Counted from the first letter of the stretch, positions 533 to 57,891 are shown. The stretch: DNA of 64,000 nucleotides from an uncultured Gemmatimonadales bacterium (GCA_963701965.1 OY969695.1:288001-352000), one strand, 5' to 3'. Translations and numbers: made by a program. The notes: generated by a model not told the origin, from the letters alone.

Positions 533-533
533 G

Positions 534-1414: not shown

Positions 1415-1420
1415 CTCGTA

Positions 1421-2240: not shown

Positions 2241-2244
2241 CCGG

Positions 2245-2862: not shown

Positions 2863-2864
2863 GG

Positions 2865-9211: not shown

Positions 9212-9287
9212 GGGCTCTTAGCTCAGTTGGTAGAGCAGCGGACTCTTAATCCGTAGGTCGAGTGTTCGAGTCACTCAGGGCCCACCA
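9212..9287 (+). tRNA. tRNA-Lys(CTT)
   Basis: GGGCTCT...AGGGCCC-A-CCA; anticodon loop CTCTTAA. Confidence 0.96.
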
Positions 9288-13722: not shown

Positions 13723-13726
13723 GCGC

Positions 13727-14686: not shown

Positions 14687-14700
14687 CGAGGCGATCCTCG

Positions 14701-14776
14701 TTCCGCTCAGCCCGCGCATGCGGGCATCCAGCAAGGTCAGGCGTTCTGGATCCCCGCTTTCGGGGGATGAGCGGAA
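14701..14776. repeat. REP/RIME-like palindromic doublet
   Basis: TTCCGCTCA-GCCCGC(GCAT)GCGGGC-ATCCAG ... CTGGAT-CCCCGCTTTCGGGGG-ATGAGCGGAA: two inverted hairpin units. Confidence 0.65.
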
Positions 14777-14877
14777 AAGGCCCCTTCCCGCGACTGCGCG
14801 CGCGGACGAGGCGCTCGAATCGGCCCCGCCCAAATGTCAGCGTGATCGAGCCCATCGGCACTCCCCTCAGGCCTCGC

Positions 14878-16540: not shown

Positions 16541-16598
16541 TATCCAGATGATGGAACTGTGTTTCTGAAGTCTGGCACCTGGATTAGGGCCGTGTCAA
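16541..16598 (-). promoter_or_regulatory. Sigma70-like promoter plus tandem IclR-type operators for ABC system 1
   Basis: TTGACA(16598-93)-N18-CAGACT. Boxes TATCCA-GATGA-TGGAAC (16541-57) and TTTCTG-AAGTC-TGGCAC (16562-78). Confidence 0.6.
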
Positions 16599-16701
16599 AG
16601 GGGCGAATACCTAACAGAAGGGGCGCAGCGGGCTCGATTTGTTCGGCGTTCCACCTTTGAGAACGACCAGCTTGTCGTCTCTTTCACTCGAGCGCATTCG
16701 T

Positions 16702-18093
16702 TCAGTGCGCAGCCCGCCCGGGAACGAATTGGCCGCAACCGGGCTGAGCGGCGACGACACCATCTTTCATGATGGTTCGCCCCCGCACGATGGTGCGCAC
16801 CGGCATGCCTCGGGTCCGGATGCCGTCCCAGGACGTGTGGCCGGAGCGGCTCGCCATGTGCTCCTTGCGGAACTCGTTCGGCTGGTTCATGTCCACGATC
16901 GTGAAATCGGCATCCGCGCCAATCTCGATCGCGCCCTTGCGTGGATAGACCCCGAATCGCCTGGCCGGCGCCAGCGCGCAGAGTCGGGCAACGTCCTCGA
17001 GCGAGAGTCTTCCTTCGTTGACCGCGTTGAGGACGAGGGGGATGAACTCCTGTGCGCCGGTGATGCCCAGAGGAACCGAGAAGTTGTCTTGCCAGCCAGG
17101 CTTCGTCTCCTCGAAGGTGTGTGGAGCGTGCTCGCCGACGAGCATGTCCGCCACTCCGTTGCGCACCGCCTGCCAATGAGAATCCGGGTTGTAGGCCCAA
17201 AGATAGGCGTTGGGGCCGACCTTGCCGGCCTGCTCGCGCGTCATGAACAGCGCGGCGGTTTCCATTTCGCCGGTCACATCCTGACCCAGGTCGAACTTTG
17301 CATGGCGGATGAGCTCATTGGTCGCGGCGGGCATCACGCCCATGTGCAGGACGTGCAACGGTGTCTTCGTCAACTGGGCGTAGTAGAGACTCGCTGCAAG
17401 ACCGGCACCCATGCCGTGCCCGTACATGTAGCCTTTGGCATAGCAGTCGAAATAGTCCTCGACCGTGGTCTTGCCCTGGTCGATGTAGTCGCGGAACACG
17501 AGGCGCTTGCACCATTCACTGTCGTCGTGGTGGACCGAACAGACTAGCCCTTGGTCGGAAACAGCCTCGAAGATCTCGTAGAGGATGCCGTGATCGACGA
17601 CGCCCAGCTCGCTGATGTAGGGGTACACCTCGCGCACATGACGCGTATTGAAGACCTTGATGGCGATCGCGCCCTCGCGAGCCAGGTCGGCAATCGTCTT
17701 GGGGTACAGGCCGCCTCCATAGAGCCCGAAATCAATTAACGCCTTGCTTCTGACGAGTTCGCGCTTTCGCACGAAAGTCTCCCGGGTCGTCGGATGCGGG
17801 TCGTTGTTGGTCATGTCCATGCAGAACGTGATGCCGCCCAGCGCGGCCGCCCGGGTGCCGGACTCGAAATCTTCCTTGTAGGTATGCCCCGGCTCGCGAA
17901 AGTGCACATGGACATGCCACAGGCCGGGCATGACGACCAGACCGCTCGCATCGATCACGGAGGCGCCAGCCACTTCCTCGCCCGGATCCATCACCGATAC
18001 GATGCGCTCGCCGTTCACGCACACCGTGGCCGCACGCTTGGCCACGGGCAGCACGACCTCTCCGCCCCGAATCACCAGATCGTAGGTTCTCAT
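16702..18093 (-). CDS. Cyclic amidohydrolase (dihydroorotase/allantoinase/hydantoinase family)
   Basis: YDLVIRGG, PGLWHVHVHFREPG, EDFESGTRAAALGGIT, IKVF, HVLH, GEHAPH, KGAIEIGADAD. Confidence 0.88.
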   Translation of the reverse strand: MRTYDLVIRGGEVVLPVAKRAATVCVNGERIVSVMDPGEEVAGASVIDASGLVVMPGLWHVHVHFREPGHTYKEDFESGTRAAALGGITFCMDMTNNDPHPTTRETFVRKRELVRSKALIDFGLYGGGLYPKTIADLAREGAIAIKVFNTRHVREVYPYISELGVVDHGILYEIFEAVSDQGLVCSVHHDDSEWCKRLVFRDYIDQGKTTVEDYFDCYAKGYMYGHGMGAGLAASLYYAQLTKTPLHVLHMGVMPAATNELIRHAKFDLGQDVTGEMETAALFMTREQAGKVGPNAYLWAYNPDSHWQAVRNGVADMLVGEHAPHTFEETKPGWQDNFSVPLGITGAQEFIPLVLNAVNEGRLSLEDVARLCALAPARRFGVYPRKGAIEIGADADFTIVDMNQPNEFRKEHMASRSGHTSWDGIRTRGMPVRTIVRGRTIMKDGVVAAQPGCGQFVPGRAAH

Positions 18094-18312
18094 AAGGCCC
18101 TCTCTGAGCAGTCGGTCGTCGCTCGCGGCAATGAGCGCGTTTCTCCGAGTGCCATCCACCAAACAGCATAATCGCCGAATGGAGAGTCGCGAAGAGGACG
18201 ACGCCGGGATTTCCAAGCTTGGTGCGAAATGCGGCTGGTTGAAAAGATCTCTCGCATGTAGCCTCGCGCGAGACATTGCCGCCCCTGGTCGACTCCGCTG
18301 CAAGTCCGCTTG

Positions 18313-18630
18313 ATGTGCGAAGTCTGCGCGGCCTTTGGGCGAGGCAACCACTGGACGGCGCGTGCGAGCGGGGTGCCGGATGCCATCGAATCCACCGATC
18401 TTCGCGGCTACCGCGGCGAACGCAGGAATGCGCTGCGGCTGATCAATGCACTACTGGCGCCAAAGGGATTGTGGGCCGATGACTGGGATGGCGATGCATA
18501 TCTGGTGAGCGCGCCGAACGGCGCGGCAGTCAAGGCCGCGCATCTGGCCGAGATCTGGGCCGTCGCCAAGCGCCTGGGAGGTGTCGAGGTCGATCCCCTG
18601 GCCGATGATTTCCTGGATGCCGCGCGATGA
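18313..18630 (+). CDS. Small CxxC-containing hypothetical protein
   Basis: MCEVCAAFGRGNHW...; ATGA overlap with the CobW-family gene. Confidence 0.7.
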   Translation: MCEVCAAFGRGNHWTARASGVPDAIESTDLRGYRGERRNALRLINALLAPKGLWADDWDGDAYLVSAPNGAAVKAAHLAEIWAVAKRLGGVEVDPLADDFLDAAR

Positions 18631-19685
18631 GGCTTCGCTCGCGTGTCCGCCTACACGTACTGACCGGGTTTCTCGGTTCCGGCAAGTCGACGCTGTTGCG
18701 CGCGTACTTGCACGCGAAAGATCACGGTATCCGTACTGCGGTGCTGATCAACGAGTTCGGTGCAGTCGCGATCGACAATGCCTTGGTGAGGTCGGTATCG
18801 CCCTATGCGCAGACGCTGACCGGCGGGTGCGCCTGCTGCACCGTGGATCGGGCGCTGATCGAGGCGCTCATCGCCATCCTCACCCAGATCGAGTCCGGAG
18901 AGACGCCGAAGGTCACCGACATCGTCCTCGAGACCTCGGGCATGGCCGACCCGAGCCGCATCATCGGGACCATCGCCGACGAGATCAATCTCGCCGAATA
19001 TCTGGAAATCGCGAACTGCGTCACGTGTGTCGAGGCCGGTACCGACGCGGCGCAGCCGAAGCGATATCCGGAAATCGGCAACCAGATCGCCTGCGCGAGC
19101 CGCTTGGTTCTCACGAAGACCGACCTGACCACGGCCGCCGCCGCGCTCGCGACTGCCAGACTGCTGAACGAGATGAACCCCTTGGCCGAAATCCGGTACG
19201 CCACCGATTTCAGGGTCGGAAGCGCGGATCTCTTCGCCCCATCGAAGGGGCCGAATCACTCGCCTCCCCTGCCGAGGACTCACGGTTCGCGCCTGAAGGC
19301 CTTCCAGATCGACCTGGACACCCGCATGGGCTGGACGGCCTTCTCGGTCTGGCTGACGGCATTGATGCACCGGCACGGCGACAAGATCCTGCGGTTCAAA
19401 GGAGTGGTGCCTCTGGAGCGCACCGGGCGTGCGCTGGTTCTTCAAAGCGTGCGGCATCGAGTCTCGGAACCCGAGCATCTCGACCTCGCCAGCGCCGACG
19501 ACGGCATCGGTTTTGGCCTCGTGTTCATCTGCGACGGAGACTTCGAAATGCGCGTGCGGCTGTCGATGCAGAAGTTCCAGGATCTGGTCGACCGGATGGC
19601 GCAACCGCTAGTACTACAGCCCGTTCTGCGTAGTCTCGCGCAACGCGCTCACGCTGATTCGCCACGCGGGCATCGAGCCCACTAG
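18627..19685 (+). CDS. COG0523/CobW-family P-loop GTPase metallochaperone
   Basis: LTGFLGSGKSTLL, INEFG, GGCACC (CxCC), ETSGMADP, TKTD, ILRFKG. Confidence 0.92.
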   Translation: MRLRSRVRLHVLTGFLGSGKSTLLRAYLHAKDHGIRTAVLINEFGAVAIDNALVRSVSPYAQTLTGGCACCTVDRALIEALIAILTQIESGETPKVTDIVLETSGMADPSRIIGTIADEINLAEYLEIANCVTCVEAGTDAAQPKRYPEIGNQIACASRLVLTKTDLTTAAAALATARLLNEMNPLAEIRYATDFRVGSADLFAPSKGPNHSPPLPRTHGSRLKAFQIDLDTRMGWTAFSVWLTALMHRHGDKILRFKGVVPLERTGRALVLQSVRHRVSEPEHLDLASADDGIGFGLVFICDGDFEMRVRLSMQKFQDLVDRMAQPLVLQPVLRSLAQRAHADSPRGHRAH

Positions 19686-19709
19686 ATGGCGCTGGTCGGG
19701 TTGCGCCGG

Positions 19710-19749
19710 TAGAATCATTTCGTGGATCTCTCGTTCCATATTTGAGAAC
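19710..19749 (+). promoter_or_regulatory. Tandem IclR-type operators upstream of molybdoenzyme 1
   Basis: GAATCA-TTTCG-TGGATC (19712-28) and GTTCCA-TATTT-GAGAAC (19733-49). TAGAAT -10-like at 19710. Confidence 0.55.
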
Positions 19750-19783
19750 GTTACATGCCTCGCCTCCGCGAAGCCGCCTGGCC

Positions 19784-22104
19784 ATGAGGTCGCCCACCCG
19801 CCATCTCGTGGCGACGCATTGGGGCACCTACCTCGCCTCCGCAGGCACGGCCTTGGGCGAAGCGCTTCGCCCGTTGCCGGAGGACTCCAACCCTTCGTCG
19901 ATCGGGTTCGATCTTCCAGCGTCGCGACTCGCACCTGCACGCGTGCTGCGCCCGGCGGTTCGCGAGTCGTACCTTCGTTCCGGCCCCGATGCTCCTCGCG
20001 ACGGGCGCGGCGGCGAGCCCTTCGTCGAGGTTTCCTGGGACACCGCGCTTGCCATCGTCGCCGCCGAGCTCGAACGCGTGCGGAGCACGGCGGGCAACGG
20101 CGCTATCTTCGGCGGCTCGTGCGGCTGGGCTAGCGCCGGGCGGTTCCATCATGCGCAGAGCCATGTGCACCGTTTCCTGAACTGCATCGGCGGTTATGTC
20201 CGCTCCGTCGGCAACTACAGCTATGGCGCCGCCGACGTGCTGCTGCCACACGTGATCGGCGACACGCGATCGCTCGCGGTCGGCCAGACAAGCTGGGAAT
20301 CGCTCCGCCGGGGCCGTTCGCTGGTGCTGATGTTCGGCGGCATGCCGGCGAAGAACGGACAGGTAGGCTCCGGCGGCATCGTCCACCACCGCTTGCTCGA
20401 GGAGCTCGCCGCGTGCCGAGAGGCGGGCTGCCGGTTCGTCTGCGTGTCGCCGGTGAGAAGCGACGCGCCGGCCGACATCGACGCGCGATGGATATCGCTG
20501 CGCCCGAACACCGACGTCGCCTTGATGCTAGGGCTCGCCCATGTGCTCGTCGCCGAGTCGCTGTGCGACCAGGCGTTCCTCGATCGATGCACCGTCGGCT
20601 TCGACGTCCTGAAGGCCTACCTTCTTGGCGAATCCGATTCGGTGCCGAAGACGCCGGCGTGGGCCGAGGCGATCACGCAGGTGCCCGCCACCGAGATTCG
20701 GCAGCTGGCGCGCGAGCTCGCCGCGAGCAACGCCTTCGTCATGCTCACCTGGTCGCTGCAGCGCGCCCAGCACGGGGAGCAGACGTACTGGATGGCGATC
20801 GCCCTGGCCTCGATGCTCGGAGGCATCGGCCTGCCGGGCCGCGGCGTCGGCTTCGGTTATGGCTCGATGGGCGGGATGGGCTTCGCGCCGCCGAGCGTGC
20901 CGTGGGCGGCCTTGCCACAGGGCGAGAACCGGGTCGCCGCGATGATCCCAGTGGCGCGCATCGCCGACATGCTGCTCAGCCCGGGCATGCCGTTCGACTT
21001 CGACGGCACGACGAATACACGTATCCAGCGATCGACTGGTCTACTGGGCCGGCGGCAATCCGTTCCATCATCACCAAGACCTCAATCGGCTCCTGCAGGC
21101 ATGGCGCGCGCCGTCGACGATCGTCGTCCACGAGGCTGGTGGAACGCGCATTCGCGCCATGCCGACATTGTGTTGCCAGTCACCACGTTCTTCGAGCGCG
21201 ACGATCTCTGCGGCTCGAGTCGGGCGCGCAGCTCGTCGCCTCGCGGCGCGTGAAAGCGAGCCGCCAGGGCCGATTGCCTCGACGACTTCGCGATCTTCTC
21301 GCGGCTCGCCGTGCGGATGGAGTCGAGCTGCGCCTACACCGAAGGGCGCGATGCTGAGGGCTGGGTTCGCCACCTCTACGAGCGCACCGCTGAGGCGGCG
21401 CGCCGGCAGGGCCACGCGCTGCCCGACTTCCCCACCTTCTGGGAAACCGGTCTCGCCGAGGTGCCACCGCAGCCGGGCTACCTGGAGCACATGCAAGCGT
21501 TCCGCCAAGATCCGCTCGGCCATCCACTTGCCACGCCGTCGGGGCGCATCGAGCTGGCCTCATCGACCATCGAGGCTTCGGCTATGCCGACTGCCCCGGG
21601 CACCCAGCCTGGCTCGAGCCTTCGGAATGGCTCGGCTCGCCGCTGGCCGCGAGCTATCCGCTGCACCTGCTCGCCAACCAGCCCGCCGACAAGCTGCACA
21701 GCCAGTGGGACCACGGCAGCCTGTCCCGAGGCAACAAGATCCGGGAGCGTGCTCGGCTCGGCATGAGTCCGCTCGATGCACAGGGCCGCGGCCTCGCCCA
21801 CGGGGACATGGTCCGCGTCTTCAACGCCCGCGGTTCGATCCTTGCAGGCGTGGCCGTCGACGCCGGCGTGCGCCAGGGGGTGGTGCAGATGTCGACGGGC
21901 GCCTGGTTCGACCCGCTCGTGCCGGGCGTGATCGGTAGCCTCGACAAGCACGGCAATCCGAACGTGCTCACGCCCGACATCGGCACCTCGTCGCTCGCCC
22001 AGGGGCCGAGCCCCAACACCTGCCTGGTGCAGGTTGAACGGTTCGACGGCGAGCTGCCGCCGATCACTTGCTTCCATCCCCCGGAGCTGAAGACGCAGTC
22101 CTAA
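19784..22104 (+). CDS. Mo-bisPGD S/N-oxide reductase, BisC/TorZ-like (copy 1), frameshifted after ~21,000
   Basis: ATHWG, RPAVRESYL, FVEVSWD, GGSCGWASAGRFHHAQS, RPNTDVALM, WSLQRAQHGEQ, TPSGRIEL, GNPNVLTPDIGTSSLAQG. No Tat leader. Confidence 0.88.
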
Positions 22105-22138
22105 GGGCGCCGCGCGCCAGCGTGGGGACTGCGCGGTG

Positions 22139-23803
22139 CTAGGACAAGAGCGGCATTTCTTCCGCCGACGGCAGGGCATGGCGGCGCTGTCCCGGGATCG
22201 CCGCGAGCAATTCGCGCGTGTAGGGATGCTGGGGGTTGCCGAAGATCGCCCGCGCCTCGCCCTGCTCGACCACCACGCCGCGCTGCATCACCAGGATGCG
22301 GTGGCAGAGCCGCGCCGCGACGCGCAGATCGTGGGTGATGAAGACGATGCTCAGGTTCAGGCGCTCGCGGATGTCCTCGAGCAGACTCAGGATCTGAGCC
22401 TGCACCGAGACGTCGAGCGCCGACACTGCCTCGTCAGCGATGAGTAGCTCGGGTTCCATCATCAGCGCCCGCGCGATCGACAGGCGCTGGCGCTGTCCGC
22501 CGGAGAACTCATGCGGATAGCGGTCGAGCGCGACTACGTCGATGCGCACGAGCTCGAGCATCTCGCACATGCGTTGAGGACCGCATCGGGCGGCTCGCCG
22601 AAGTTCGCGGGCCCTCGGCCAGTGCGCGGCGTACGGTGAGGCGCGGGTTGAAGGAGCGGAACGGGTCCTGGAAGACCATCTGCACCTTCTTACAGTTGCG
22701 CTGCCATTCGCTCATCGACATTCGCGCCAGGTCCTCGCCGCCGAGCAGGATCCTCCCGGAGGTCGGCGGCGTGAGCCGCGCCAGGCAGCGGCCGAGCGTC
22801 GTCTTGCCTGATCCCGATTCGCCGACCACACCGAGGGTCTCGCCGCGGGCGAGCTCGAGCGACACGCCTGCGACGGCATGCACGACCCGGCGTCGCGACT
22901 TCAGGATCGCGGCCGTCTCGAAGCGCACGTGCAGGTCGTCGACTACGAGCAGCGGCTCGGGCGCGACCTTGGCGGCGTCGGCGCCGAACGATCCGTTCGG
23001 CACCGAGGCGAGCAGCATCTTCGTGTACTCGTGCTTCGGGTTGCGCAGCACCTCGTCGGCGCTGCCGCTCTCAACGATGCGGCCCGACTGCATCACGACC
23101 ACGCGGTCGGCGATCTCGGCGACGACGTCGAAGTCGTGGGTGATGAAGAGGACGCTCGCGTCATGCCGGCCGCGCAGCTCATGGAGCAGGCGCAGAACCT
23201 GCGCCTGCGAGGTGACGTCGAGGGCGGTGGTCGGCTCGTCGGCGATGAGAGGCGCGGCTCCATCGCGAGCGCCATGGCGATCATGACCCGCTGGCGCTGG
23301 CCGCCCGAAAGCTGGTGCGGATACGAGTGCCGCAGCGTTTCGGGGGAGGGAAGATGCACGTCGGCGAGTAGCGCCAGCACCTTGTCGGCGACCTCGCGCC
23401 GGCCCATCTTTGGCGCGTGGAACTCGAACGCCTCGGCGATCTGGTCGCCCACGCGCATAACAGGATTGAGCGCGGTCATCGGCTCCTGGAAGACCATCGC
23501 CATGCGGTTGCCGCGCAGGTCGCGCAGCTCCTGCAGCGGCGCATGCGTGATGTCCCGGCCGGAGAGCAGGATCTGCCCGCGCTCGAGCGTAAGCACGCCG
23601 GGCGGCAAGAGGCCCATCACCGCGCTCGCGGTGACCGACTTTCCCGAGCCCGATTCGCCGACGATGCACACCGTCTCGCGCGCACCGATCGTCAAGTTGA
23701 CCGCTTCGACGGCGTAGGCGCGGTCGCTACCCTTGGGCAGGCGCACGTGCAGGTCGCGGACCTTGAGGACCGGCGCTGCGGCGGGGTCGTCGGCTGCAGA
23801 CAT
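22139..23803 (-). CDS. Peptide ABC transporter fused ATP-binding protein (system 2), frameshifted
   Basis: [20 protein letters not shown], second [36 protein letters not shown]. Confidence 0.85.
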
Positions 23804-23810
23804 CGTCGGT

Positions 23811-24679
23811 TCAGCCCCGAAGCCTGCGCGCCATGCGCGGATCGAGGCGGTCGCGCAGGGCGTCGCCGAACATGTTGAGCGAGAGAATGAGCAGCGCCAG
23901 GAAGATGCCCGGGGTACAGCACGACCCACGGCGCGCGCTGGAAGAAGGGCCGTCCCTCGGCGATGATGCTGCCGAGGCTCGGGATCTCGGGCGGAAAGCC
24001 GAGGCCGAGGAAGCCGAGCGCCGCCTCGGTGAGGATCCCGCCGCGGCGCAGACGAAGGTCGCCTGAACCACGAGCGGGTTGAGCGTGCTCGGCAGGATGT
24101 GCCGGGGATCGATCACTTTCCACGTCGGCGTTCCCATGCCGACCGAGACCTCGACGAAGGGCGCCTCACGCACCGAGAGCACGACGCTGCGCACCAGGCG
24201 CGCGATCCGCGGAATCTCGGGATGGAGATCGCGACGACCATCGAGGCGATGTTCGCCCCCGCGAGCGCCACTAGCGTCACCGCGAGCAGCAGCCCGGGGA
24301 TCGCCATGATGCCGTCCATGATGCGCATCACGCCGCGATAGGGTCGAGGCGGCGGAAGTACCCCGCGACGAGGCCGATGAGAAGGCCGCAGCACACCGCC
24401 ACCATGCTCACCAGCATGGCGAGGGTGACCGAAAGCCGCCCGCCGTAGAGCACGCGGGCGAGCAGGTCGCGGCCGAGCGAATCGGTGACGTCAGTAGTCA
24501 CCGTGCGCTGGGCGAAGGCGCAGGCGCGGCGTGAGGACCGCCGGATCGTGCTGGACTATGAGCGGCGCACCGATCGAGACGAGGATCAGAAGCGCGAGCA
24601 GGCCGAAGGCGAGCAGCATCGTGCGGTCGCGGGCGACGGTGCGGAAGGCGAGGCGCAGCGGGTGAACGATCGCGGACAC
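23811..24679 (-). CDS. Peptide ABC transporter permease DppC-like (system 2), frameshifted
   Basis: TDSLGRDLLARVLYGGR, MRIMDGIMAIP, ILTEAALGFLGLG, GDALRDRLDPR. Confidence 0.8.
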
Positions 24680-24687
24680 TCGTCGCT

Positions 24688-25629
24688 TCAGTAGCGGATC
24701 CGTGGGTCGAGCAGCACGTAGGCGATGTCGACCAGCAGGTTGACGAAGATGTAGGTGAACGAGAAGAAGAGGATCGTTCCCTGCACCACGGGATAGTCGC
24801 GGGCGAGCACCGAGTCGACGATCATCCGGCCGACGCCGGCGATGTTGAACACCGTCTCGGTCACGACCACGCCACTGATGAGCGCGGTGATGCCGACGCC
24901 GACAATGGTGACGATGGGCACCGCCGCGTTGCGCAGCGCATGGCGGAAAAGGACCACGCCCTCGGGCGCGCCCTTCGCGCGCGCGGTGCGCACGAAGTCC
25001 TCGCCGAGGATGTCGAGCATGCTCGCGCGAGTGATGCGCGAGATCAGCGCGATGTACACCGTCGCCAGCGCGAGCGTTGGCAGCACCAGATGGCGCAGGT
25101 ATTCGCCGAGGCCCCGGTCCAGCGATGCGTAGCCCTGCACTGGCAGCCAGTTGAGTTTCACCGCGAAGGCGTAGATGAGGAGGTAGCCGATCACGAAGGA
25201 GGGCACCGAGAAGCCGAGCACCGAGCCCGCGCGGATGCCGCGGTCGATCCAGCCGCCGTGCCGCCACGAGGCGAGCACGCCGAGTGGCACCGCCACGAGG
25301 ATGGTGACGAGGATCGCGGACGCCGCGAGCGAGAGCGTCGGCGGCAGGCGCGCGGCGATGAGCTCAGTGACGGGCTTCTTCGAGATTACCGAGTGGCCGA
25401 GGTCACCGGTGAGGACCGCACTCATCCAGCGCACGTATTGCGTGGTGATCGGCTTGTCGAGGCCCATGTCCTTGCGGATCGCCTCGACCTGCTCCGCGGT
25501 CGCGAGGTCGCCGGCGATCACGTGCGCCGGATCGCCCGGCGCGAAGCGCAGCAGCAGGAACACCACGGTCGCCACCACGACCATGATCGGAACGATCGCA
25601 ACCAGGCGCTGCAGGAGGAGACGGAGCAC
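24688..25629 (-). CDS. Peptide ABC transporter permease DppB-like (system 2)
   Basis: FAPGDPA, GLDKP, GDLGHS, EDFVRTARAKG, RHALRNA, LDPRIRY. Confidence 0.93.
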   Translation of the reverse strand: MLRLLLQRLVAIVPIMVVVATVVFLLLRFAPGDPAHVIAGDLATAEQVEAIRKDMGLDKPITTQYVRWMSAVLTGDLGHSVISKKPVTELIAARLPPTLSLAASAILVTILVAVPLGVLASWRHGGWIDRGIRAGSVLGFSVPSFVIGYLLIYAFAVKLNWLPVQGYASLDRGLGEYLRHLVLPTLALATVYIALISRITRASMLDILGEDFVRTARAKGAPEGVVLFRHALRNAAVPIVTIVGVGITALISGVVVTETVFNIAGVGRMIVDSVLARDYPVVQGTILFFSFTYIFVNLLVDIAYVLLDPRIRY

Positions 25630-25653
25630 GGGCCGGACCGTCCCGCCAGTACG

Positions 25654-27249
25654 TCAGCGCTTCGCCTGCCAGAACAGCGGCAGTGGCGCCTCGACCATGT
25701 TCGCCATCTTGCCGTCGTAGCCCTTGAACTTGGAGAAGCCGCCGAGCGGCACGTAGAAGACCTGATCGTAGTTGAGCTTCTGGATCTCCTTGACGATCGC
25801 CATCTTCTTGGCCCGGTCCGCCTCGACCGCGAACTGATCGCGAAGGCTTTCCATCTGCTCGCTCTTCGACCAGCCGACGTAGCCGATCTCGCCGCGCGCG
25901 TCGAGGTTCGGGTTGATCACCGGGCTCAGCAGGTCGAGCGCGCTCCATTGCGAATGGATCAGGCTCCAGCCGCCCTGCGCGACCGGATCCTTTTTGGTCC
26001 GGCGCGCCTGCATCGTGCTGTAGTCCATCGACTGCACCTCGACGTTCATGCCGATACTGCGCAGCGCCTGGCTCGTGACCGAGGCCATGCTGCCCAGCAC
26101 CTGGATGTCGGTCGGATGCAAGATGACGACCTTCTCGCCCTTGTAGCTGCTCTCCGCGAGCATCGCCTTCGCCTTGGCGAGGTCGGGCGCCTTGAGCTGG
26201 GGCGCGAACTCGTCGGTCGCGTACGGCGAGGCGCACGACAGCACGGCGCCGCACGGCTGATAGACCTTCGGGTCGCCGAACTGCGCCTGCAGGTAGTCGA
26301 CCTGGTTCAGCGCGGCGAGCGCGGCGCGCCGCACCTTGACGTCGTTGAACGGCGGCTGCAGCCAGTTCATCTTGAGCGTGAACATGTCGGTGTGCTTGCC
26401 GAACGACTTCACCGTGATGCCCTTGACGCCCTCGAGCTGCGACATCAAGTCGGGCTGCACGTCCTCGACGAAGTCCACCTCGCCGGCGCGCAGAGCCTGC
26501 ACCGCGGTCTGCACGTCGGGGATCGAGATGACCTCGATGCGGTCGGCCATCGCGATCTTGCCGCCCGCGAAGGCGCTCGCCGGCTCCTTGCGCGGCACGT
26601 AGTCGGTGTTCTTCAGGTAGGTGGCCTTGACGCCGGGCTGGAAGTCGGCGGCGACGAACTTGTACGGACCCGAGCCGACCGCCTCCGTGATCGCCTGCGA
26701 TGCCGGCACCGAAGCGATCCGCTTGGGCATGATGAAGGGCACAGGCGAGCCCTGCTTGGCGAGCGTTTCGATCGTCAGGCCGTAGGGGCGCTTGAGCTTG
26801 AAGATGAAGGTCGAGGGCGCGGGCGAGGTCAGGCTCTCGGTCGACGCCATCAGCCGCGCGCCCATCTGGTCGCGCTCGCTCCAGCGGCGCAGCGATGCGA
26901 TCACGTCCTCGCCGGTAACCGGCGTGCCGTCGTGGAACTTGAGGCCGGGGCGTAGCTGGAAGGTATAGATGAGCTTGTCGGGCGAGACGGTGAAGGTGTC
27001 GACCATCTGCGGCTGCGGGTTGGACTTGTCGTCCATCGCGAACAGCGTGTCGTAGACGAGATAGCCGTGGTTGCGCGTGCTGTACGCGGGCGTCAGCACC
27101 GGGTCGAGGATCTTCAGCTGCGTCTGCAGCACGACCTTGATCGTTCCCGTGCCGCCCTGGGCCGAGGTCGTGGGGGCGAGGGCGACTCCGGCCGCGAGCG
27201 TCGCGGCGGCCACGAGAGCGCGGAGAGGGGGGCGCGGGAAGAGGGTCAT
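25654..27249 (-). CDS. Peptide ABC transporter substrate-binding protein (system 2)
   Basis: Signal peptide, LDPVLTPAYSTRNHGYLVYDTLF, LRPGLKFHDG, GSGPYKF, PPFNDVKVRRA. Confidence 0.93.
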   Translation of the reverse strand: MTLFPRPPLRALVAAATLAAGVALAPTTSAQGGTGTIKVVLQTQLKILDPVLTPAYSTRNHGYLVYDTLFAMDDKSNPQPQMVDTFTVSPDKLIYTFQLRPGLKFHDGTPVTGEDVIASLRRWSERDQMGARLMASTESLTSPAPSTFIFKLKRPYGLTIETLAKQGSPVPFIMPKRIASVPASQAITEAVGSGPYKFVAADFQPGVKATYLKNTDYVPRKEPASAFAGGKIAMADRIEVISIPDVQTAVQALRAGEVDFVEDVQPDLMSQLEGVKGITVKSFGKHTDMFTLKMNWLQPPFNDVKVRRAALAALNQVDYLQAQFGDPKVYQPCGAVLSCASPYATDEFAPQLKAPDLAKAKAMLAESSYKGEKVVILHPTDIQVLGSMASVTSQALRSIGMNVEVQSMDYSTMQARRTKKDPVAQGGWSLIHSQWSALDLLSPVINPNLDARGEIGYVGWSKSEQMESLRDQFAVEADRAKKMAIVKEIQKLNYDQVFYVPLGGFSKFKGYDGKMANMVEAPLPLFWQAKR

Positions 27250-27252
27250 CGT

Positions 27253-27310
27253 GTTCCCTGAAATGGAAAGGTGATTCCGAAGTCTGGCATTCGAATTTGC
27301 GCAATGTCAA
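27253..27310 (-). promoter_or_regulatory. Sigma70-like promoter plus tandem IclR-type operators for ABC system 2
   Basis: TTGACA(27310-05)-N18-CAGACT. Boxes GTTCCC-TGAAA-TGGAAA (27253-69) and ATTCCG-AAGTC-TGGCAT (27274-90). Confidence 0.6.
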
Positions 27311-27377
27311 ACGGGCGAGTACGGATGCGGTCTTCGTCCGGGCCGGGCTGCTGCAAGATCAGGGCCAGCCGGAGGCG

Positions 27378-27441
27378 TTGACAAGGCGGCAGGGTCCTCC
27401 TAGACTTCAAAATATGGACCGCATGTTCCGATTTATGGAAC
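27378..27441 (+). promoter_or_regulatory. Sigma70 promoter plus tandem IclR-type operators for the CoA-transferase operon
   Basis: TTGACA(27378)-N17-TAGACT(27401). Boxes ACTTCA-AAATA-TGGACC (27404-20) and GTTCCG-ATTTA-TGGAAC (27425-41). Confidence 0.7.
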
Positions 27442-27451
27442 AGAAAGAGAC

Positions 27452-28634
27452 ATGAACGACCCCGCGTCGATCGCCCTTCCCCTCGCCGGCGTGCGGGTGA
27501 TCGAGTTCTGCTCGGTCGCCGCGGGACCCTTCTGCGGCATGCTGCTCGCCGACATGGGCGCCGACGTACTGAAGATCGAGCCGCCCTCGGGCGACGCGCT
27601 GCGCACCTGGCCGCCGATCAACGACGGCTTCAGCGAGAACTTCGCGTCGATCAACCGCAACAAGCGCTCGGCGGTCCTCGACCTCAAGCTGCCGGAGCAT
27701 GCCGAGGCGGCGCGCAGGCTCTGCGCAGACGCCGACGTGGTGATCGAGAACAACCGGCCCGGCGTGATGGACCGGCTCGGCCTCGGCTACGAGCGGCTCT
27801 CGGGCGCGAACCCGAAGCTCGTCTACTGCTCGATCTCGGCCTTCGGCCAGAGCGGGCCGCGCGCCGCCGAGGGCGGCTTCGACTTGACGATCCAGGCCGC
27901 CGCGGGCGTGATGAGCGTCACCGGCGAGTCCGACGACGTGCCGGTGAAGTGCGGCGTGCCGTTGTCGGATTTCGCCTCGGGCTTATACGGCGCGTTTTCG
28001 ATCGCGAGCGCGCTCCTCGCGGCGCGCGGCACGGGTGCCGGCGCGTGGCTCGACATCCCGATGTTCGGCTGCACGCTCGCGATCAGCGCGCTGCAGACGA
28101 GCGAGTACTTCGGCACCGGCCAGAGCCCGAAGAAGCTCGGCTCGGCGCATCCGCGAAACGCTCCGTACCAGGCGTTCCGCGCCGCGGACGGCTACTTCGT
28201 CGATCGCCGCGGGCAACGACGGTCTGTGGCGGGCCGTGCTGCGCGCGGTCGACAACGAACTGCTCGCCGACGATCCGCGCTTCCTTACGCCGACGCTGCG
28301 CGCGAAGAACCAGGTCGCGCTTAAGGAGATCCTCGAGCTGCGCTTCGTCGAGCGCGACGTCGCGCACTGGATCGAGACCTTCCGCGCCGCGGGCGTGCCG
28401 CATTCGCGGATCAACACCTACGCCGAGGCGCTCGCCGATCCGCAGGTCGAGGCGATGGGCTGGGTGCAGGAGATCGAGCTGCCGTCGGGCGCTCGCACGC
28501 GCACCTTCGCGTCGCCGATCCGCATCAACGGCAAGAACCTGCCGATCTTGCAGCGCCCGCCGGCGCTCGGCGAGCACTCCGACGACGTGTTGCGGCAGGC
28601 GGTCCGCGAGGCGGATTCGATCCTGCAGCCCTGA
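27452..28634 (+). CDS. CoA-transferase family III (CaiB/BaiF), one frameshift near 28,200
   Basis: PLAGVRVIE, AGPFCGMLLADMGADVLKIEP, NRNKRS, ENNRPG, VPLSDFASG (catalytic Asp), PPALGEHS. Confidence 0.92.
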
Positions 28635-28654
28635 ACTTCCGGAAGGATGGCTCC

Positions 28655-29212
28655 ATGCGCAGCGACCCCTTGGCCGATTTCGTTCAGCGTCTCGAGGGGA
28701 TAGTCTCGCGGGACGCGCGCAGCGAGGACGCCGTCCTCGGCGAGGTGCGCGAGGCGATGCGGGCGCTGGTCGCGATGGACGACTGGCTGCCCGAGCCGTT
28801 CACCCGGCCCGACGCGGAGCGCTACCGGCAGTATCTGCTCCATGCCGACCCGGACGACCGCTTCTGCGTCGTCAGCTTCGTCTGGGGCCCGGGCCAGCAC
28901 ACGCCGATCCACGACCACTGCGCCTGGGGTGTGATCGGCATGCTGCGCGGCGCCGAGGTGACGACGTCGTTCAGCGAGTCGGCGTCGGGGATGCAGCAGG
29001 GCGAGGAGCTGACCCTTCGGCCCGGCGACGTTGCGGTGGTCGGGCCGAGCGTCGGCGACATCCACAAGGTGCGCAACGCCTACGCCGACCGCGTCTCGAT
29101 CAGCATCCACGCCTACGGCACGAACATCGGCAAGCAGGTCCGCCACGTCTTCGACGTGCAGTCGGGCGCACGCAAGGACTTCGTCTCCGGCTACTCGAAC
29201 GCCGCCGCATGA
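28655..29212 (+). CDS. Gln-type thiol dioxygenase (3-mercaptopropionate dioxygenase-like)
   Basis: YRQYLL (Gln-type), FVWGPGQHTPIHDH, GDIH, SIHAY triad, conserved Arg in NIGKQVRHVF. Closely matches the 3-MDO pattern. Confidence 0.88.
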   Translation: MRSDPLADFVQRLEGIVSRDARSEDAVLGEVREAMRALVAMDDWLPEPFTRPDAERYRQYLLHADPDDRFCVVSFVWGPGQHTPIHDHCAWGVIGMLRGAEVTTSFSESASGMQQGEELTLRPGDVAVVGPSVGDIHKVRNAYADRVSISIHAYGTNIGKQVRHVFDVQSGARKDFVSGYSNAAA

Positions 29213-29976
29213 CGACGCCCGAGCTCGCGGTCGGCTGGAGCGACGACGGCGTCTGTACCGCCACGCTCAACCGTCCCGGCGCCGGCAACGCGCTCTCGGC
29301 CGGGCTCGTCGCCGCGCTCGGCTCCGTCGTCGACGCGGCGGCCGGGCGGCAGGCGCGCCTGCTCGTGCTGCGCGGCGAGGGTCGCCACTTCTGCACCGGC
29401 TTCGATCTTTCGCAGGTCGACGACGAGAGCGACGACTCGCTGCTCGCCCGCTTCTGCCGCGTCGAGATGATGCTGCAGAAGGTGCATCGCGCCCCTTTCC
29501 CGACACTCGCGCTCGCGCACGGCCGCACGATTGGCGCGGGCGCCGACCTGTTCGCCGCGTGCACGCACCGCCTCGCCGCCCCGGGGACGCAGTTCGCGTT
29601 TCCCGGCGCGTCGGGCTTCGGCCTCGTCCTCGGCACGCGCCGCCTGGTGCAGCGCGTCGGCGCCGAACGCGCGCGGCGCTGGGTCGAGCCGGGCGCAACG
29701 ATCGGCTTCGACGAGGCGCTCACGGCGGGCCTCGCCACCGGCGCGCTTGCCGACGCGTCGGGCGCCGCAGACATCGTCCGCTGCCTCGGCGCTGACACGT
29801 CGGGCGCCGCCAACCCCTTCCTCGGCTCGGCGCTCGACGCCGCCGATCCGGTTCATGATCACGCCGACCTCGCAGTGCTCGTCCGCTCGGCGGCCGTGCC
29901 CGGGCTGAAGGCGCGGATCGCCGCGTACGTCGAGCGCGGCAGGCAGCAGCGTCATTCCACTTCTTCACCTTCGTAG
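29209..29976 (+). CDS. Crotonase/enoyl-CoA hydratase-superfamily protein, non-canonical active site
   Basis: [43 protein letters not shown] overlap with the dioxygenase. Confidence 0.85.
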
Positions 29977-29984
29977 AGATCGCC

Positions 29985-31531
29985 ATGGCTTCGCAAACTT
30001 CCCTGAAAGACGACACCTTCACCCTGCTCGCGCGCCTCGGCGTGAGCGCGGGTCAACTCGAAGACGGCAGCCTCGCCGCAACGACGCCCATCACCGGCGA
30101 GACGATCGCCCGGCTGCCGGAGATGTCCGCCGCCGACGCGACCGCGCGCGATCGGCGCCGCGCACGCAGGCGTTCCTCGAGCCTGGCGCAAGGTCCCGGC
30201 GCCGCGCCGCGGCGAGCTGGTCCGCCTGCTCGGCGAGGAGCTGCGCGCCGCGAAGGCCGATCTCGGCCGCGCTGGTCACGCTCGAGGCCGGCAAGATCGT
30301 CTCCGAGGGCCTCGGCGAGGTGCAGGAGATGATCGACATCTGCGACTTCGCCGTCGGCCTGTCGCGCCAGCTCTACGGCCTGACGATCGCCACCGAGCGG
30401 CCGGACCACCGCATGATGGAGACCTGGCATCCGCTCGGCGTGGTCGGCGTCATCTCGCGCCTTCAACTTCCCGGTCGCGGTCTGGGCGTGGAACGCGGCG
30501 CTGGCGCTGGTCTGCGGCGACACCGTGGTCTGGAAGCCGTCGGAGAAGACGCCGCTGACCGCGCTCGCCGTGCCAGGCGCTGTTCGAGCGCGCGGCGGCG
30601 CAGCTTCGGCGACGCGCCGACGGGCCTCTCGGCCCTGCTGATCGGCGGCCGCGACGTCGGCGAGGCGCTGGTCGACGCATCCGCGGTCGCCGCTGGTCTC
30701 GGCGACCGGCTCGACCGCGATGGGCCGCGCGGTCGGCGCCGCGCGCTCGCCGCAGCGCTTCGCCCGCTCGCTCCTCGAGCTCGGCGGCAACAACGCCGCG
30801 ATCGTCTGCCCGTCGGCCGACCTCGACCTGGCGCTGCGCGGCGTCGCCTTCGCCGCCATGGGCACCGCCGGCCAGCGCTGCACGACGCTGCGCCGCCTGT
30901 TCGTCCACGAGAGCGTCTACGACGAGCTTCTGCCGCGCGCTGAAGCGACGCCTATCGGCACGTGCAGGTCGGCGATCCGCGCGAGGCCGGCACGCTGGTC
31001 GGCCCGCTGATCGACGAAGGGCGCCTTCGACGCGATGCAGCGCGCGCTGGACGCAGGCGAAGGGCGCCGGCGGCCACGGTCACCGGCGGCGAGCGCGTCG
31101 CCGCCGACGGTGCCGCCGACGCCTTCTACGTCCGCCCGGCGCTGGTCGAGATGCCGGCGCAGGCCGAGGTCGTGCAGCGCGAGACCTTCGCGCCGATCCT
31201 CTACGTCATGCGCTACTCGCGACCTCGACGAGGCGATCGCGCCTGCACAACGACGTGCCGCAGGGCCTGTCGTCGTCGATCTTCACCAACGACCTGCGCG
31301 AGGCCGAGCTCTTCCTCTCGGCGCGCGGCTCCGACTGCGGCATCGCCAACGTCAACATCGGCCCCTCGGGCGCCGAGATCGGCGGCGCGTTCGGCGGCGA
31401 GAAGGAGACCGGCGGCGGCCGCGAGTCGGGCTCCGACAGCTGGAAGGCCTACATGCGCCGCGCCACCAACACGATCAACTACGGCCGCGACGCTGCCGCT
31501 GGCCCAGGGCGTCAAGTTCGACGTCGACTAA
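29985..31531 (+). CDS. Aldehyde dehydrogenase, ALDH7/AmaB (piperideine-6-carboxylate dehydrogenase-like), many 1-nt insertions
   Basis: [93 protein letters not shown]. Confidence 0.9.
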
Positions 31532-31538
31532 GCGGGCG

Positions 31539-32695
31539 ATGAAGCTCGACACGCTGCTCGTCCACGCGGGTCGGGATCCCGATCGCTTCGAAGGATTGGT
31601 GAACGCGCCCGTGACGCGGGCGTCGACAATCCTGCATCCCGACATGGCGTCGTTCAACGCCGCCGCGTCGAACAAGCACGGGGTTCCCTACTACGGCCGA
31701 TACGGCACCTCGATCTCGAAGCTGCTCGCCGAGGCGTGCGCCGAGTTGGACGGCGCCGCGGGCGCTGTGCTCTTCCCTCGGGCTTGGCGGCGATCGCCGG
31801 CACCCTCTCGGCTTTGCTCAAGCCCGGCGGCCACCTGCTGGTGGTCGACTCGGTTTACGCGCCGGTGCGCGACCTGTGCGAAAAGGTCCTGGAGCAGCAG
31901 CGCATCGCGGTCACCTTCTACCCGCCCGACGCCGGCGCCGGCATCGCTGCTCAAATCCGGCCCGAGACACAGGCAATCTATTGCGAAGCGCCCGGCTCGC
32001 ACACCTTCGAGATGCAGGACGTGCCGGCGATTGGCCGGGTCGCCGCGGCGCGGGGCATTCCGGTCATCGTCGACAACACGTGGGCGACGCCCTACTACTT
32101 CAAGCCGCTCCAGCACGGCGCCGACATCGCGATCCAGGCGGGGACGAAGTACCTCGTCGGCCATTCCGACGCGATGCTCGGTGTCGCGACCTGCACAGGG
32201 GCGTGGCTGCCGCTGCTGCAGCGCTCGACCGCGCTCCACGGCAACTCGGTGAGCGCCGACGACTGCTACCTCGCTCTGCGCGGCATGCGCACGCTCGCGG
32301 TGCGGCTGCGTCAGCACTACGAGGGCGCGTTGAAAGTCGCGGGCTGGCTGCAGGGCCGGCCGCAGGTCAGGCGGGTGCTCTATCCGCCGCTTGAGCAGGG
32401 GACCGGCCGGGGGCTGTGGGAGCGCGACTTCACCGGCGCGTCGGGGCTGTTCGGCGTCGAACTCGATCCGGCGTGCGAGGCGCACGTCGATGCCTTCGTC
32501 GATGGGCTGCAGCTCTTCGGCATCGGCGTGAGCTGGGGCGGGTACGAGAGCCTCGTGCTACCCAGCCACGTGCGGCGCAGCCTCCCTTCGACGTCTTCGG
32601 GTCCGTTGGTCCGCTTCCACATCGGCCTCGAGGATCCCGACGACCTGATCGCCGACCTCGCAGCAGGTCTCGAGCGGATGCCAGCAGCACGCTGA
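31539..32695 (+). CDS. metC: Cystathionine beta-lyase/cysteine-S-conjugate C-S lyase (PLP), one frameshift near 31,778
   Basis: [74 protein letters not shown]. Confidence 0.85.
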
Positions 32696-32725
32696 CGCGC
32701 GCTCGGTTGGAAAAGCGCGAGGGCG

Positions 32726-33502
32726 TCAGGCCGCCGCGGCCGCCAGGGCCGCGCGAGGCACCGTGCCTTCGAGCGACCGCTCGACGAGGCGCGCCGCGGC
32801 GATCACCTCGTCGGCGAGGCTCTTGATGTTTCCGGGCTTGATGCGCGCCGAAGGCCCGGAGACCCCGATCGCAGCGAGCACGTTGCCCTTGACGCTGCGG
32901 ATCACAGCCGCGACGCCCCACACCGTCTCGCGCCATTCGCCGCGGTTGACCGCATAGCCGTTGGCGCGGATCCGGCCCATCTCGCGCAGGTACTCCTGCG
33001 GATCGATGATCGTGCGCGGCGTGTGCGCGCGCAGGTGCGAAGCCACCGACGCGAGCACGGGCGGGGGCTGCCACGCGAGCATCGCTTTTCCGGTGGCGAC
33101 GCAGAACGCCGGCGCGCGGCCGCCGATCTCCGAATACGCGCGCACCGGCTCGGGGCTGTCGAGCTTGTGGACGTAGACAACCTCCTCGCCGTCGAGCACG
33201 GAGAGGTGCACCGTCTCGCGGGTGCGCGCGAGGAGGCGTCCCATCGCCTCGCTCGCTGCCGCCTTGATGCGGTAGCCCACCTCGACCGCGGCGCCGAGCT
33301 CCCAGAGACGGAGCGACACTTGGTATTGCGCGGTCGATTCGTCCCTCAGCACGTAGCCGAGCTCGACGAGCGCCTGCAGCAGCCGATGCACGTTGCTCTT
33401 GCCCAGTGAGAGCTGCGCCGCGAGGTCGCTCACCCCTTGCGGCTCGCGGCTTCGCGCCAGCACCTCCAGCAGCTGCAGCCCCTTTACCAGCGTGTTATTC
33501 AT
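32726..33502 (-). CDS. IclR-family transcriptional regulator
   Basis: NTLVKGLQLLEVL, HTH KSNVHRLLQAL, TRETVHL, PAFCVATGKAMLA, GYAVNRGE, AIGVSGP. Confidence 0.93.
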   Translation of the reverse strand: MNNTLVKGLQLLEVLARSREPQGVSDLAAQLSLGKSNVHRLLQALVELGYVLRDESTAQYQVSLRLWELGAAVEVGYRIKAAASEAMGRLLARTRETVHLSVLDGEEVVYVHKLDSPEPVRAYSEIGGRAPAFCVATGKAMLAWQPPPVLASVASHLRAHTPRTIIDPQEYLREMGRIRANGYAVNRGEWRETVWGVAAVIRSVKGNVLAAIGVSGPSARIKPGNIKSLADEVIAAARLVERSLEGTVPRAALAAAAA

Positions 33503-33512
33503 CGGGCGTCGT

Positions 33513-33550
33513 CGAGAAGAAGGTGGATCGACCGTTCCATTGTATGGACC
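33513..33550 (-). promoter_or_regulatory. IclR-type operator upstream of the regulator (autoregulation)
   Basis: GTTCCA-TTGTA-TGGACC (33534-50) plus half-site TGGATC (33524-29) 21 bp away. Confidence 0.6.
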
Positions 33551-33554
33551 GCCC

Positions 33555-34198
33555 TCATGCACCAACAGTCCGTAGGCTGCCGTCGGGCAGGCGGAAGCGG
33601 TAGGCGAGCGACGCGGTCGCGGCGGGCTCGAGCACGGCCACGAGGTCGACCACGCCGAGGCGCCGCAGCACGCCGCGCAGCGCCTCGGCCTCGGGATGGC
33701 GCATTTCGATCCCCTCGAGCTTCGGGCCGAGGAACTGCATTGCCTGCGAGGGATGCGGCCCGGGCGACCATTCGATGAAGCCCGGCACGAGCCCGTCGTA
33801 CGGCATCGCGCCCGCCTCGGGCACGGTGAGCCGCCAGGTGCGCTCGCCGCGCGACATGCGCCGCGCTTCGCCGAGCTCGACCGGGCTCGTCGCGACGACG
33901 CGGTCGAGATCATCCGTGCGCACGACCCAGCCGACGCCGCGCGGCGCCGTCGCGATGCGCGCCTGCACGGCAGGATCGTCGAGCCCGAACCAGCGCTTGC
34001 GCGGCACCGGCGGCGCGTCGGGGTCGACCGCGATCAGCTCGAGGAAGCGCGCGTCGCCGACGTTGACCACGCGGTTGTGCGTGCTCATGTCGGGGTGCTT
34101 CCGCCCGGCGGGATGTCGATGCCGAGGGCATCGCGCAGCGCCGCGGCGCCGTCGGCGAGCGACGCCGTGCCGAGGGTGACGTGGTCGAGGGCGATCAT
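33555..34198 (-). CDS. VOC/Glyoxalase_3-family protein (frameshift near 34,100)
   Basis: ALDHVTLG...LADG, GGKHPDMSTHNR, FLELIAVDP, RWFGLD, PGFIEW, HPS. Confidence 0.85.
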
Positions 34199-40365: not shown

Positions 40366-42638
<2,273 letters not shown>

Positions 42639-52396: not shown

Positions 52397-52465
52397 ACCA
52401 ACATCCTTCAGTTAGGGGGGTGTCGGGGGGAGCTTCATCCCCCCTGACTGCAATGGACGAGGCGG

Positions 52466-52524
52466 TTTTTGACGCAAATGCCCCTGGGCGCATGGCGCCC
52501 AGGGGCAAGGTCTTGCGTCAAAAA
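52466..52524 (-). terminator. Long hairpin downstream of 5S, probable rrn terminator
   Basis: TTTTTGACGCAA...TGCCCCTGGGCGC-ATG-GCGCCCAGGGGCA...TTGCGTCAAAAA inverted repeat. Confidence 0.6.
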
Positions 52525-52525
52525 C

Positions 52526-52812: not shown

Positions 52813-55770
<2,958 letters not shown>

Positions 55771-56087: not shown

Positions 56088-57617
<1,530 letters not shown>

Positions 57618-57857: not shown

Positions 57858-57891
57858 CCCCGCTGCATTTAAATCTTTTTCTCTACTCTAC

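Follow-up and report, generated by a model that had tools for sequence, protein, structure and literature searches.

Within a 64,000-nucleotide stretch of DNA deposited under an uncultured Gemmatimonadales bacterium (GCA_963701965.1 OY969695.1:288001-352000; hereafter the window, whose positions are used throughout unless another record is named), palindromic 17-bp boxes mark the promoters of a gene cluster that also encodes an IclR-family regulator (IclR1; 32726..33502, minus strand; HTH_IclR and IclR_C domains). The boxes are conserved palindromes and likely operators of this neighbouring repressor. Our best explanation of the whole, to which we assign a probability of roughly 0.45 from sequence comparison, is that IclR1 controls the release of a small mercapto-acid from sulfur-linked compounds and its subsequent desulfination by a crotonase acting in place of the known desulfinase AcdA. 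The regulated core matters more than the layout of its operators. Its genes are widespread and unstudied, and probably remove sulfur from small thiol acids by means of a predicted new enzyme.

Nine boxes are present where the first-pass annotation had located them, four pairs of which lie exactly 21 bp apart, and among offsets of 18-25 bp, 21 is the best at all five promoters. Upstream of the substrate-binding protein gene of a first transporter (SBP1), the tandem operator (16541-16557 and 16562-16578) accompanies a -10 element CAGACT (16569-16574) and a -35 element TTGACA (16593-16598) on the minus strand. The SBP2 promoter (27253..27310, minus strand) comprises a strong box (27253-27269), a weak box (27274-27290) over the -10 CAGACT and a TTGACA -35 at 27305-27310, and the promoter of the CoA-transferase (CoAT) operon (27378..27441, plus strand) combines TTGACA-17-TAGACT with a weak box (27404-27420) and a strong one (27425-27441). 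The spacing is TTGACA-18-CAGACT at both SBP1 and SBP2, so that the described overlap of the weak box with a (C/T)AGACT -10 placed 17-18 bp from TTGACA holds at these three promoters; a strict sigma-70 scan is passed by the CoAT promoter only. With a weak box over the -10 element and a strong box that coincides with or lies beyond the probable start site, the arrangement would suit a repressor. At molybdoenzyme 1 (Mo1), a three-box operator (19710..19749), kept in the close relative G031, consists of a TAGAAT -10 (19710-19715), a half-site within 19712-19728 and a strong box (19733-19749). Upstream of IclR1 (33523..33550), the box at 33534-33550, which includes TACAAT on the minus strand, is accompanied by a half-site 4 bp away. 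An additional strong, unpaired box (16648..16664) was overlooked earlier, as were two further boxed promoters near the end of the contig. It lies upstream of the SBP1 -35 element by about 50 bp, at a distance of 107 bp from the box at 16541, and could serve looping.

A palindromic Gibbs search of the 260 bp upstream of 48 IclR homologues (at least 50% identity), with the window and the related loci L009 and L010 left out of training, recovered the motif de novo from these distant promoters with the consensus GTTCcataatatgGAAC, which bears out the expected conservation in orthologous regions. Applied to the 338-kb segment that contains the window's left part, the resulting position weight matrix (PWM) has as its top six sites 5,110,211 of G000 (the one-contig genome record holding the window), 27425, 19733, 27253, 33534 and 16648, followed by 16562 and 16541 at ranks 10 and 11. 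The partners at 19712 and 33513 rank 13,865 and 32,312 and retain just the half adjoining the strong box; the Mo1 partner is not the full box first described, and the full box plus half-site reported upstream of the IclR gene is there. A PWM trained on the window itself, which ranked held-out strong boxes 3-34 among 5.1 million positions, was partly circular and was replaced by the de novo model.

None of 2000 dinucleotide shuffles reaches the observed 21-bp pair score at SBP1, Mo1 or SBP2/CoAT, and at IclR all but two of 2000 fall below it; three unboxed control regions given the same test are at background (not significant). That the boxes are chance AT-rich promoter sequence could be argued from the loose two-mismatch consensus, which is unenriched over the window (23 occurrences against 17.6±4.3 expected, a count reached by 15 of 100 shuffles), and from the two partners that are at background as full boxes. 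Recovery in distant loci, the shuffle tests and position-specific conservation contradict this reading, which we regard as extremely improbable; background frequency, a stated ground for refutation, counts against the loose consensus and not against the pairs at boxed promoters.

Across 58 related loci (L-numbers), with L009 and L010 set aside, a spacing of 21 bp gives the best partner for 78 of 99 sites, as scored with a window-derived PWM that counts both members of a pair if both pass. Boxes, TTGACA and -10 elements are kept while spacers drift, in three of three close relatives for SBP2/CoAT and in the single one with the gene for Mo1, and this conservation lends good support to the view that the CoAT operon, SBP2 and Mo1 are under IclR control. 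A sixth boxed promoter, displaced to the contig end (G000 5,109,200-5,109,272; TTGACA-18-CAGCAT plus a 21-bp pair whose score was matched by 0 of 2000 shuffles), precedes RidA-RidA-SBP3-Opp3-Mo2-glyoxalase-IclR and is conserved in L009 and L010. Its strong box has one extra base in the window's strain relative to these two loci, probably a read error. The 33534 box, proposed to mediate autoregulation, exists and is kept in L010, but is absent from L009 and L075, where the genes overlap; autoregulation would more likely act through the displaced promoter (two of two relatives) than through this box (one of three).

That all boxed promoters answer to one regulator and one effector, as had been proposed, is supported only in part. 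A second regulator (IclR2; G000 5,113,444), 42% identical to IclR1, lies in the same tRNA-bounded island and has the same KSNVHR helix, so that the boxes could be real and nevertheless not form one system: the SBP1 block might have been acquired separately, or some promoters might respond to IclR2 or to both proteins. SBP1, the amidase (9857..11308, plus strand), the cyclic amidohydrolase (dihydroorotase/allantoinase-like; 16702..18093, minus strand) and the CobW-family GTPase (18627..19685, plus strand) were not found in either of the close relatives G031 and G032, and their GC content at third codon positions is 0.68-0.80 against 0.90-0.95 for the core. The amidohydrolase-CobW pair (16702-19685) matches Paraburkholderia plasmid modules (L230, L231) at 67-68%; both hits carry a GntR gene between the two, none of which was seen in the window, and the nearest plasmid relatives of SBP1-block genes adjoin GntR or other regulators. 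No close amidohydrolase orthologue was found in 401 Pseudomonadota genomes, and no box lies upstream of the amidase or in the divergent promoter of the amidohydrolase. On the other side, the SBP1 pair outscored all 2000 shuffles, its weak-box core is common to the SBP2 and RidA promoters, and the IclR2 operon promoter has a 20-bp period (three of three genomes) where the IclR1 clade has 21. We consider such a divided system rather unlikely. A single unit is credible for CoAT, SBP2, Mo1 and the RidA operon, and uncertain for SBP1, strong as its operator is.

Clades were taken from a quick tree. Near members of the 77-row Burkholderiales subclade that includes IclR1, 54 of 96 sites are spaced by 21 bp and two by 20 bp; outside it, eight of 14 are at 20 bp, all from two near-identical sets, and one is at 21. 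Spacing may therefore separate the operators of IclR1 from those of IclR2. The IclR2 operon (LVIVD-repeat, CobW, IclR2; G000 5,110,191-5,114,193, L163 and L165), which also contains TctC, has the 20-bp period in all three genomes and is divergent from an N-formylglutamate amidohydrolase-like gene. Eight loci (L022, L029, L033, L036-L038, L040, L044) with regulators of the IclR1 clade and 21-bp boxes contain, within the fetched stretch, no CoA-transferase-dioxygenase-crotonase triad, and their boxes adjoin AraC, a histone deacetylase-like deacetylase, a class III aminotransferase and an Opp transporter. At L017:113-2564 and L065:7482, a 21-bp box pair stands before a xanthine-dehydrogenase-family molybdenum hydroxylase, near ALDH7-MetC-triad operons. 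A biotin or ergothioneine pathway, suggested by BisC and the amidohydrolase, was rejected because the amidohydrolase-CobW pair is unboxed, absent from close relatives and far below ErtD cut-offs.

The regulated core consists of a family III CoA-transferase (27452..28634, plus strand; one frameshift, intact in L009), a Gln-type thiol dioxygenase of the 3-mercaptopropionate dioxygenase group (28655..29212, plus strand) and a crotonase of the uncharacterised 3ISA family, the candidate desulfinase (29209..29976, plus strand). Aligned to 6XB9 and 3USS, the dioxygenase contains the three His ligands, the Gln that replaces the Arg of cysteine dioxygenase (CDO), the Ser-His-Tyr triad and the distal Arg. 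Its family is thereby evident, and a preference for 3-mercaptopropionate would suit this type. The best match of the crotonase in the protein data bank (PDB) is 3ISA (E 5.7e-39; fold TM 0.85, 42-44% identity), with which it shares GAGxD and PG motifs. At what we take to be the positions of the two catalytic glutamates of canonical enoyl-CoA hydratase, Asp stands at the first and, in all 28 rows of an alignment, FPG at the second; the second catalytic Glu is lost, the two-glutamate signature is absent from the crotonase, and R80, E85, D112 and R144 are invariant. At E≤1e-40 the 3ISA family comprises 2953 proteins; among the 120 of them that were listed, not one has a specific name, and the ESM Atlas gave generic crotonase clusters only.

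The three genes travel together. Crotonase loci of at least 9 kb numbered 82 after exclusion by identifier of nine redundant G031/G032 loci, and 70 at 90% identity; 63 of these 70 contain the CoA-transferase, 58 a CDO-family cupin and 54 both, with an acyl-CoA dehydrogenase within 9 kb in none of the 54 triad loci. IclR accompanies the triad in 39 of 54 cases and a Mo enzyme in 21. Metagenome loci of at least 9 kb picked by crotonase give a similar picture (dioxygenase 35/38, CoA-transferase 34/38, acyl-CoA dehydrogenase 0/38), and of the distinct dioxygenases, 126 in number, 82 have the crotonase nearby, 11 have an acyl-CoA dehydrogenase there and none has both. The 401 genomes of G031's family contain the dioxygenase in 65 cases, the crotonase in 26 and an AcdA orthologue in five; by coordinates, crotonase and dioxygenase are linked in 16, 14 of which have no AcdA orthologue. 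AcdA is also absent from G031 and from all five isolate genomes tested. The AcdA query matches PDB 5AF7, presumably the desulfinase itself, at E 8e-212. Two genomes carry the crotonase triad and the AcdA system at separate loci.

The proposed mechanism is made of steps of unequal strength. In the first, which we hold to be very probable, an IclR tetramer would span the strong palindrome together with a neighbouring site, half or full, at a distance of two helical turns, blocking the promoter until an effector binds. In the second, whose parts are together fairly likely from the families involved, Opp transporters would import S-substituted cysteines or their sulfoxides, cytoplasmic BisC-type enzymes would reduce the sulfoxide to the thioether, and an ALDH7/piperideine-6-carboxylate dehydrogenase-like enzyme (29985..31531, plus strand; several frameshifts, the L009 orthologue passing NF050084) would turn a semialdehyde side chain into a carboxylate. 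The MetC-type pyridoxal phosphate-dependent C-S beta-lyase (31539..32695, plus strand; one frameshift) would then cleave the C-S bond, yielding thiol, pyruvate and ammonia, and RidA would remove aminoacrylate. In the third step, the dioxygenase would convert the mercapto-acid, its presumed substrate, into the sulfinate. The fourth step is predicted with slightly less than even odds: the CoA-transferase would activate the sulfinate and the crotonase would expel SO2 or sulfite by way of an enolate, the simplest substrate being an alpha-sulfino acyl-CoA such as sulfinoacetyl-CoA of a thioglycolate route, to give acetyl-CoA. The oxyanion hole of a crotonase can drive SO2 out of an alpha-sulfino acyl-CoA in the way that CO2 is lost from a CoA ester of the malonyl type, whereas a three-carbon sulfinate requires the flavin of AcdA. 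Thioglycolate, for example from S-carboxymethylcysteine, is favoured because the alpha-sulfino chemistry needs no flavin and the three-carbon sulfinate does.

The genes around the triad vary. Among the 54 triad loci, MetC with RidA, often with ALDH7, occurs in five; an acyl-CoA synthetase with a second crotonase represents another type (synthetase in 18), and fumarate-lyase-family and PrpD proteins a third (five loci), with best PDB hits to a fumarate lyase and IDS epimerase. The S-(2-succino) lyase of PMC9706529 may offer a comparison for the latter. A Bradyrhizobium operon encodes sulfopyruvate-decarboxylase-like subunits (both hits under curated cut-offs), an aldehyde dehydrogenase and an amino-acid dehydrogenase; the product of this set would be a two-carbon S-acid. 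Each of these varied modules can release a mercapto-acid, so the simplest placement of the constant triad is downstream of them. The broader proposal is possible but doubtful: the 3ISA-family crotonase would be a cofactor-free desulfinase, forming with the CoA-transferase and dioxygenase a widespread route from thioglycolate or a different alpha-mercapto acid to acyl-CoA and sulfite, fed by interchangeable C-S modules, under an IclR clade set apart from its paralogue by a 21- rather than 20-bp period.

Several observations weigh against desulfination by the crotonase. The alignment reveals no group-specific change in the pocket or active site of the dioxygenases, which are scattered among AcdA-linked ones; their solved relatives are three-carbon enzymes, contrary to a two-carbon substrate, and so canonical a dioxygenase favours 3-mercaptopropionate instead. 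AcdA absence alone proves little, because 47 of the 49 other dioxygenase genomes lack it too. The CoA-transferase/crotonase pair also occurs where no dioxygenase is present (12 of the 70 crotonase loci have none, and a Rieske oxygenase is found in four of those), 26 of the 54 triad loci have no recognised thiol-releasing module, and L136, removed as a 90% duplicate, has two. The loci share ancestry and most were selected through IclR or crotonase, so that the counts are not independent; several window genes are frameshifted. Part of this evidence fits a reading in which the CoA-transferase would activate a thioether acid, the crotonase would cut the C-S bond by retro-Michael elimination and the dioxygenase would only detoxify the 3-mercaptopropionate released. 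Such a pathway would account for the persistence of CoA-transferase and crotonase together where the dioxygenase is absent (12 of 70 loci have none), for the canonical type of the latter and for the many dioxygenase genomes that do without AcdA. It also has a precedent in Variovorax paradoxus TBEA6, where, in the passages covered, two crotonases are needed to convert thiodipropionate into 3-mercaptopropionate and TDP-CoA stabilises Ech-20 (PMC6370202). However, the acyl-CoA synthetase, a second activating enzyme present in 18 of 54 triad loci and often joined by a second crotonase, already fits that upstream role, MetC frees the thiol in the window so that no CoA ester is needed, and acdA stands beside the crotonases of the TBEA6 cluster but never in these loci. 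We judge upstream cleavage improbable, at about the level of the divided regulon, and retain crotonase desulfination as the better account. Two variants of the core may be recorded here. In L175-L177, L179, L234 and L236, CoA-transferase and crotonase occur without dioxygenase and near a Rieske oxygenase in most cases, and may receive the same intermediate made otherwise. At L129:6176-6742, a divergent, non-orthologous CDO-family cupin, weakly like known 3-mercaptopropionate and mercaptosuccinate dioxygenases, fills the dioxygenase slot ahead of the CoA-transferase and crotonase, with oxoprolinase-like genes nearby.

In our searches the only desulfinase was the acyl-CoA enzyme dependent on flavin adenine dinucleotide, whose place is occupied here by a large crotonase family. 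Cofactor-free release of sulfite, if true, would be a new crotonase reaction and would provide genes for mercapto-acid breakdown in Burkholderiales of soil, lake and sludge; thioglycolate and thiolactate are broken down by sewage inocula, according to a table in the covered part of PMC6061509. Cultured strains of Ottowia, Acidovorax, Xenophilus and Polaromonas carry the cluster and a crystal structure exists, so that the crotonase could be tested cheaply.

The remaining genes of the window complete the cluster. Opp-type ABC transporter 1 (11330..16481, minus strand) has its SBP1 start at 16481, several frameshifts and an approximate low end; transporter 2 (22139..27249, minus strand) includes SBP2 at 25654-27249; and transporter 3 (36532..40372, minus strand) has the 5' end of oppB cut by an assembly junction. 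Mo1 (19784..22104, plus strand; frameshifted, intact in G031) and Mo2 (34195..36519, minus strand; intact, no signal peptide seen) belong to the BisC/dimethyl sulfoxide (DMSO) reductase family, and a Glyoxalase_3 (VOC-fold) protein is encoded at 33555..34198 on the minus strand. Many single-base frameshifts, typical of unpolished long reads, occur over 11300-38500 in genes that are intact in L009.

The cluster DNA is likely that of a Burkholderiales-like organism and not of the chromosome into which it is assembled. At the junction (40365..40380), a truncated clpC is fused to a truncated oppB, and at G000 ~5,106,720 the other two halves form the reciprocal fusion. To the right of ~40372 lie mcsB, clpC, lolDE, lysS, prfB and era, on a chromosome that gene content suggests to be Gemmatimonadota-like. 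The contig's first 328 kb and last 10 kb have a differing tetranucleotide profile and carry tolB, pal, tRNAs and a second prfB-like gene. L009, a Burkholderiales record whose IclR is 93% identical, maps over 1-3179 to G000 5,109,912-5,106,723 and from 3186 onward to 328,372 downward, with clpC cut at the same points; one short public record is identical over 40266-40372 (0 differences) and then runs 44 letters off the window. The reciprocal clpC/oppB junctions, the contiguous mapping of L009 and the departure of the short record at 40372 make a misjoin the simplest reading: a Gemmatimonadota-like chromosome would have been spliced into a 338-kb Burkholderiales-like contig at window 40372 and G000 5,106,723. 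A genuine integration of the 338-kb block would agree with the genome being one contig of 4.23% stated contamination, but would leave unexplained the reciprocal cuts, the core genes and foreign composition of the block, the short record and the absence of the IclR from all five same-genus genomes, and is very improbable. No record spans the junction and sequencing runs hold at most 0.35 of its words, a lack of cover that was not counted as evidence. The genome record is a likely chimera and deserves to be flagged as such. Inside the Burkholderiales DNA, the 3' 45 bp of tRNA-Lys(CTT) (9243..9287, plus strand) recur exactly at G000 5,116,436-5,116,480; since this repeat stands at both borders of the cluster, the island of ~41 kb is real. 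No integrase was found among the window open reading frames scanned, a scan that covered the island outside its contig-end part. A possible second chimera is L166:15843 (G032:C2), titled Acidobacteriota, where Burkholderiales-like cluster switches abruptly to unrelated sequence within an ABC ATPase gene. On the Gemmatimonadota-like side of the window, 52400-58000 has 58-60% GC and few long reading frames between era and a tRNA-Lys/Arg/Pro cluster.

Compared with known systems, the operators resemble IclR group 1, for which the covered passages of PMC8222616 give the motif GKTYCRYW3-4RYGRAMC, tandems of 18-22 nt (94 groups) and sites of three boxes (32 groups). The window shares the 17-bp GTT-11-AAC palindrome and this tandem or three-box spacing; its layout is of a kind already published for IclR proteins and adds little. 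The Pden_4604 rows of the same source have KSNVHR or KSNAHR helices and GTTCC..GGAAC sites, and the regulog lists CaiB, CaiD, BisC and COG5553, the last two as read by column count, with no pathway given in the passages covered. Its listed members there come from other genomes, and the window's IclR lies in the separate 77-row Burkholderiales subclade with a 21-bp period. The regulator of L170 has the same HTH as one Pden_4604 row and is 52% identical to IclR1; in the quick tree both fall in a 97-row clade, L170 outside the 77-row subclade. The Mo enzymes are of the BisC/DorA/TorA type (TIGR00509): the best PDB hit is DMSO reductase 1EU1 (E 2e-208) and the SYGW and YS motifs are kept, yet scores of 936 and 918 fall short of the 1017.55 cut-off and signal peptides are missing. 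The nearest protein to the crotonase in sequence and fold, 3ISA, is a putative enoyl-CoA hydratase of Bordetella parapertussis from structural genomics with no assigned function; neither a crotonase desulfinase nor this gene set was matched in the literature searched, whose coverage stopped short of subscription journals. Orthologues of the CoA-transferase in distant crotonase loci are 52-76% identical to it, and it falls outside the Act type, being 34-36% identical to the CoA-transferases that act-acd-mdo loci L198, L202 and L219 encode, taken as stand-ins for the named Act sequence. The closest known counterpart remains the Mdo-Act-AcdA route of V. paradoxus TBEA6 and Advenella DPN7, as presented in the covered part of PMC6370202. 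Both clusters have a Gln-type thiol dioxygenase beside a family III CoA-transferase and share a proposed logic of sulfinate activation and sulfite release, but that of the window has a crotonase in place of the acyl-CoA dehydrogenase-like desulfinase and an IclR rather than a LysR regulator nearby.

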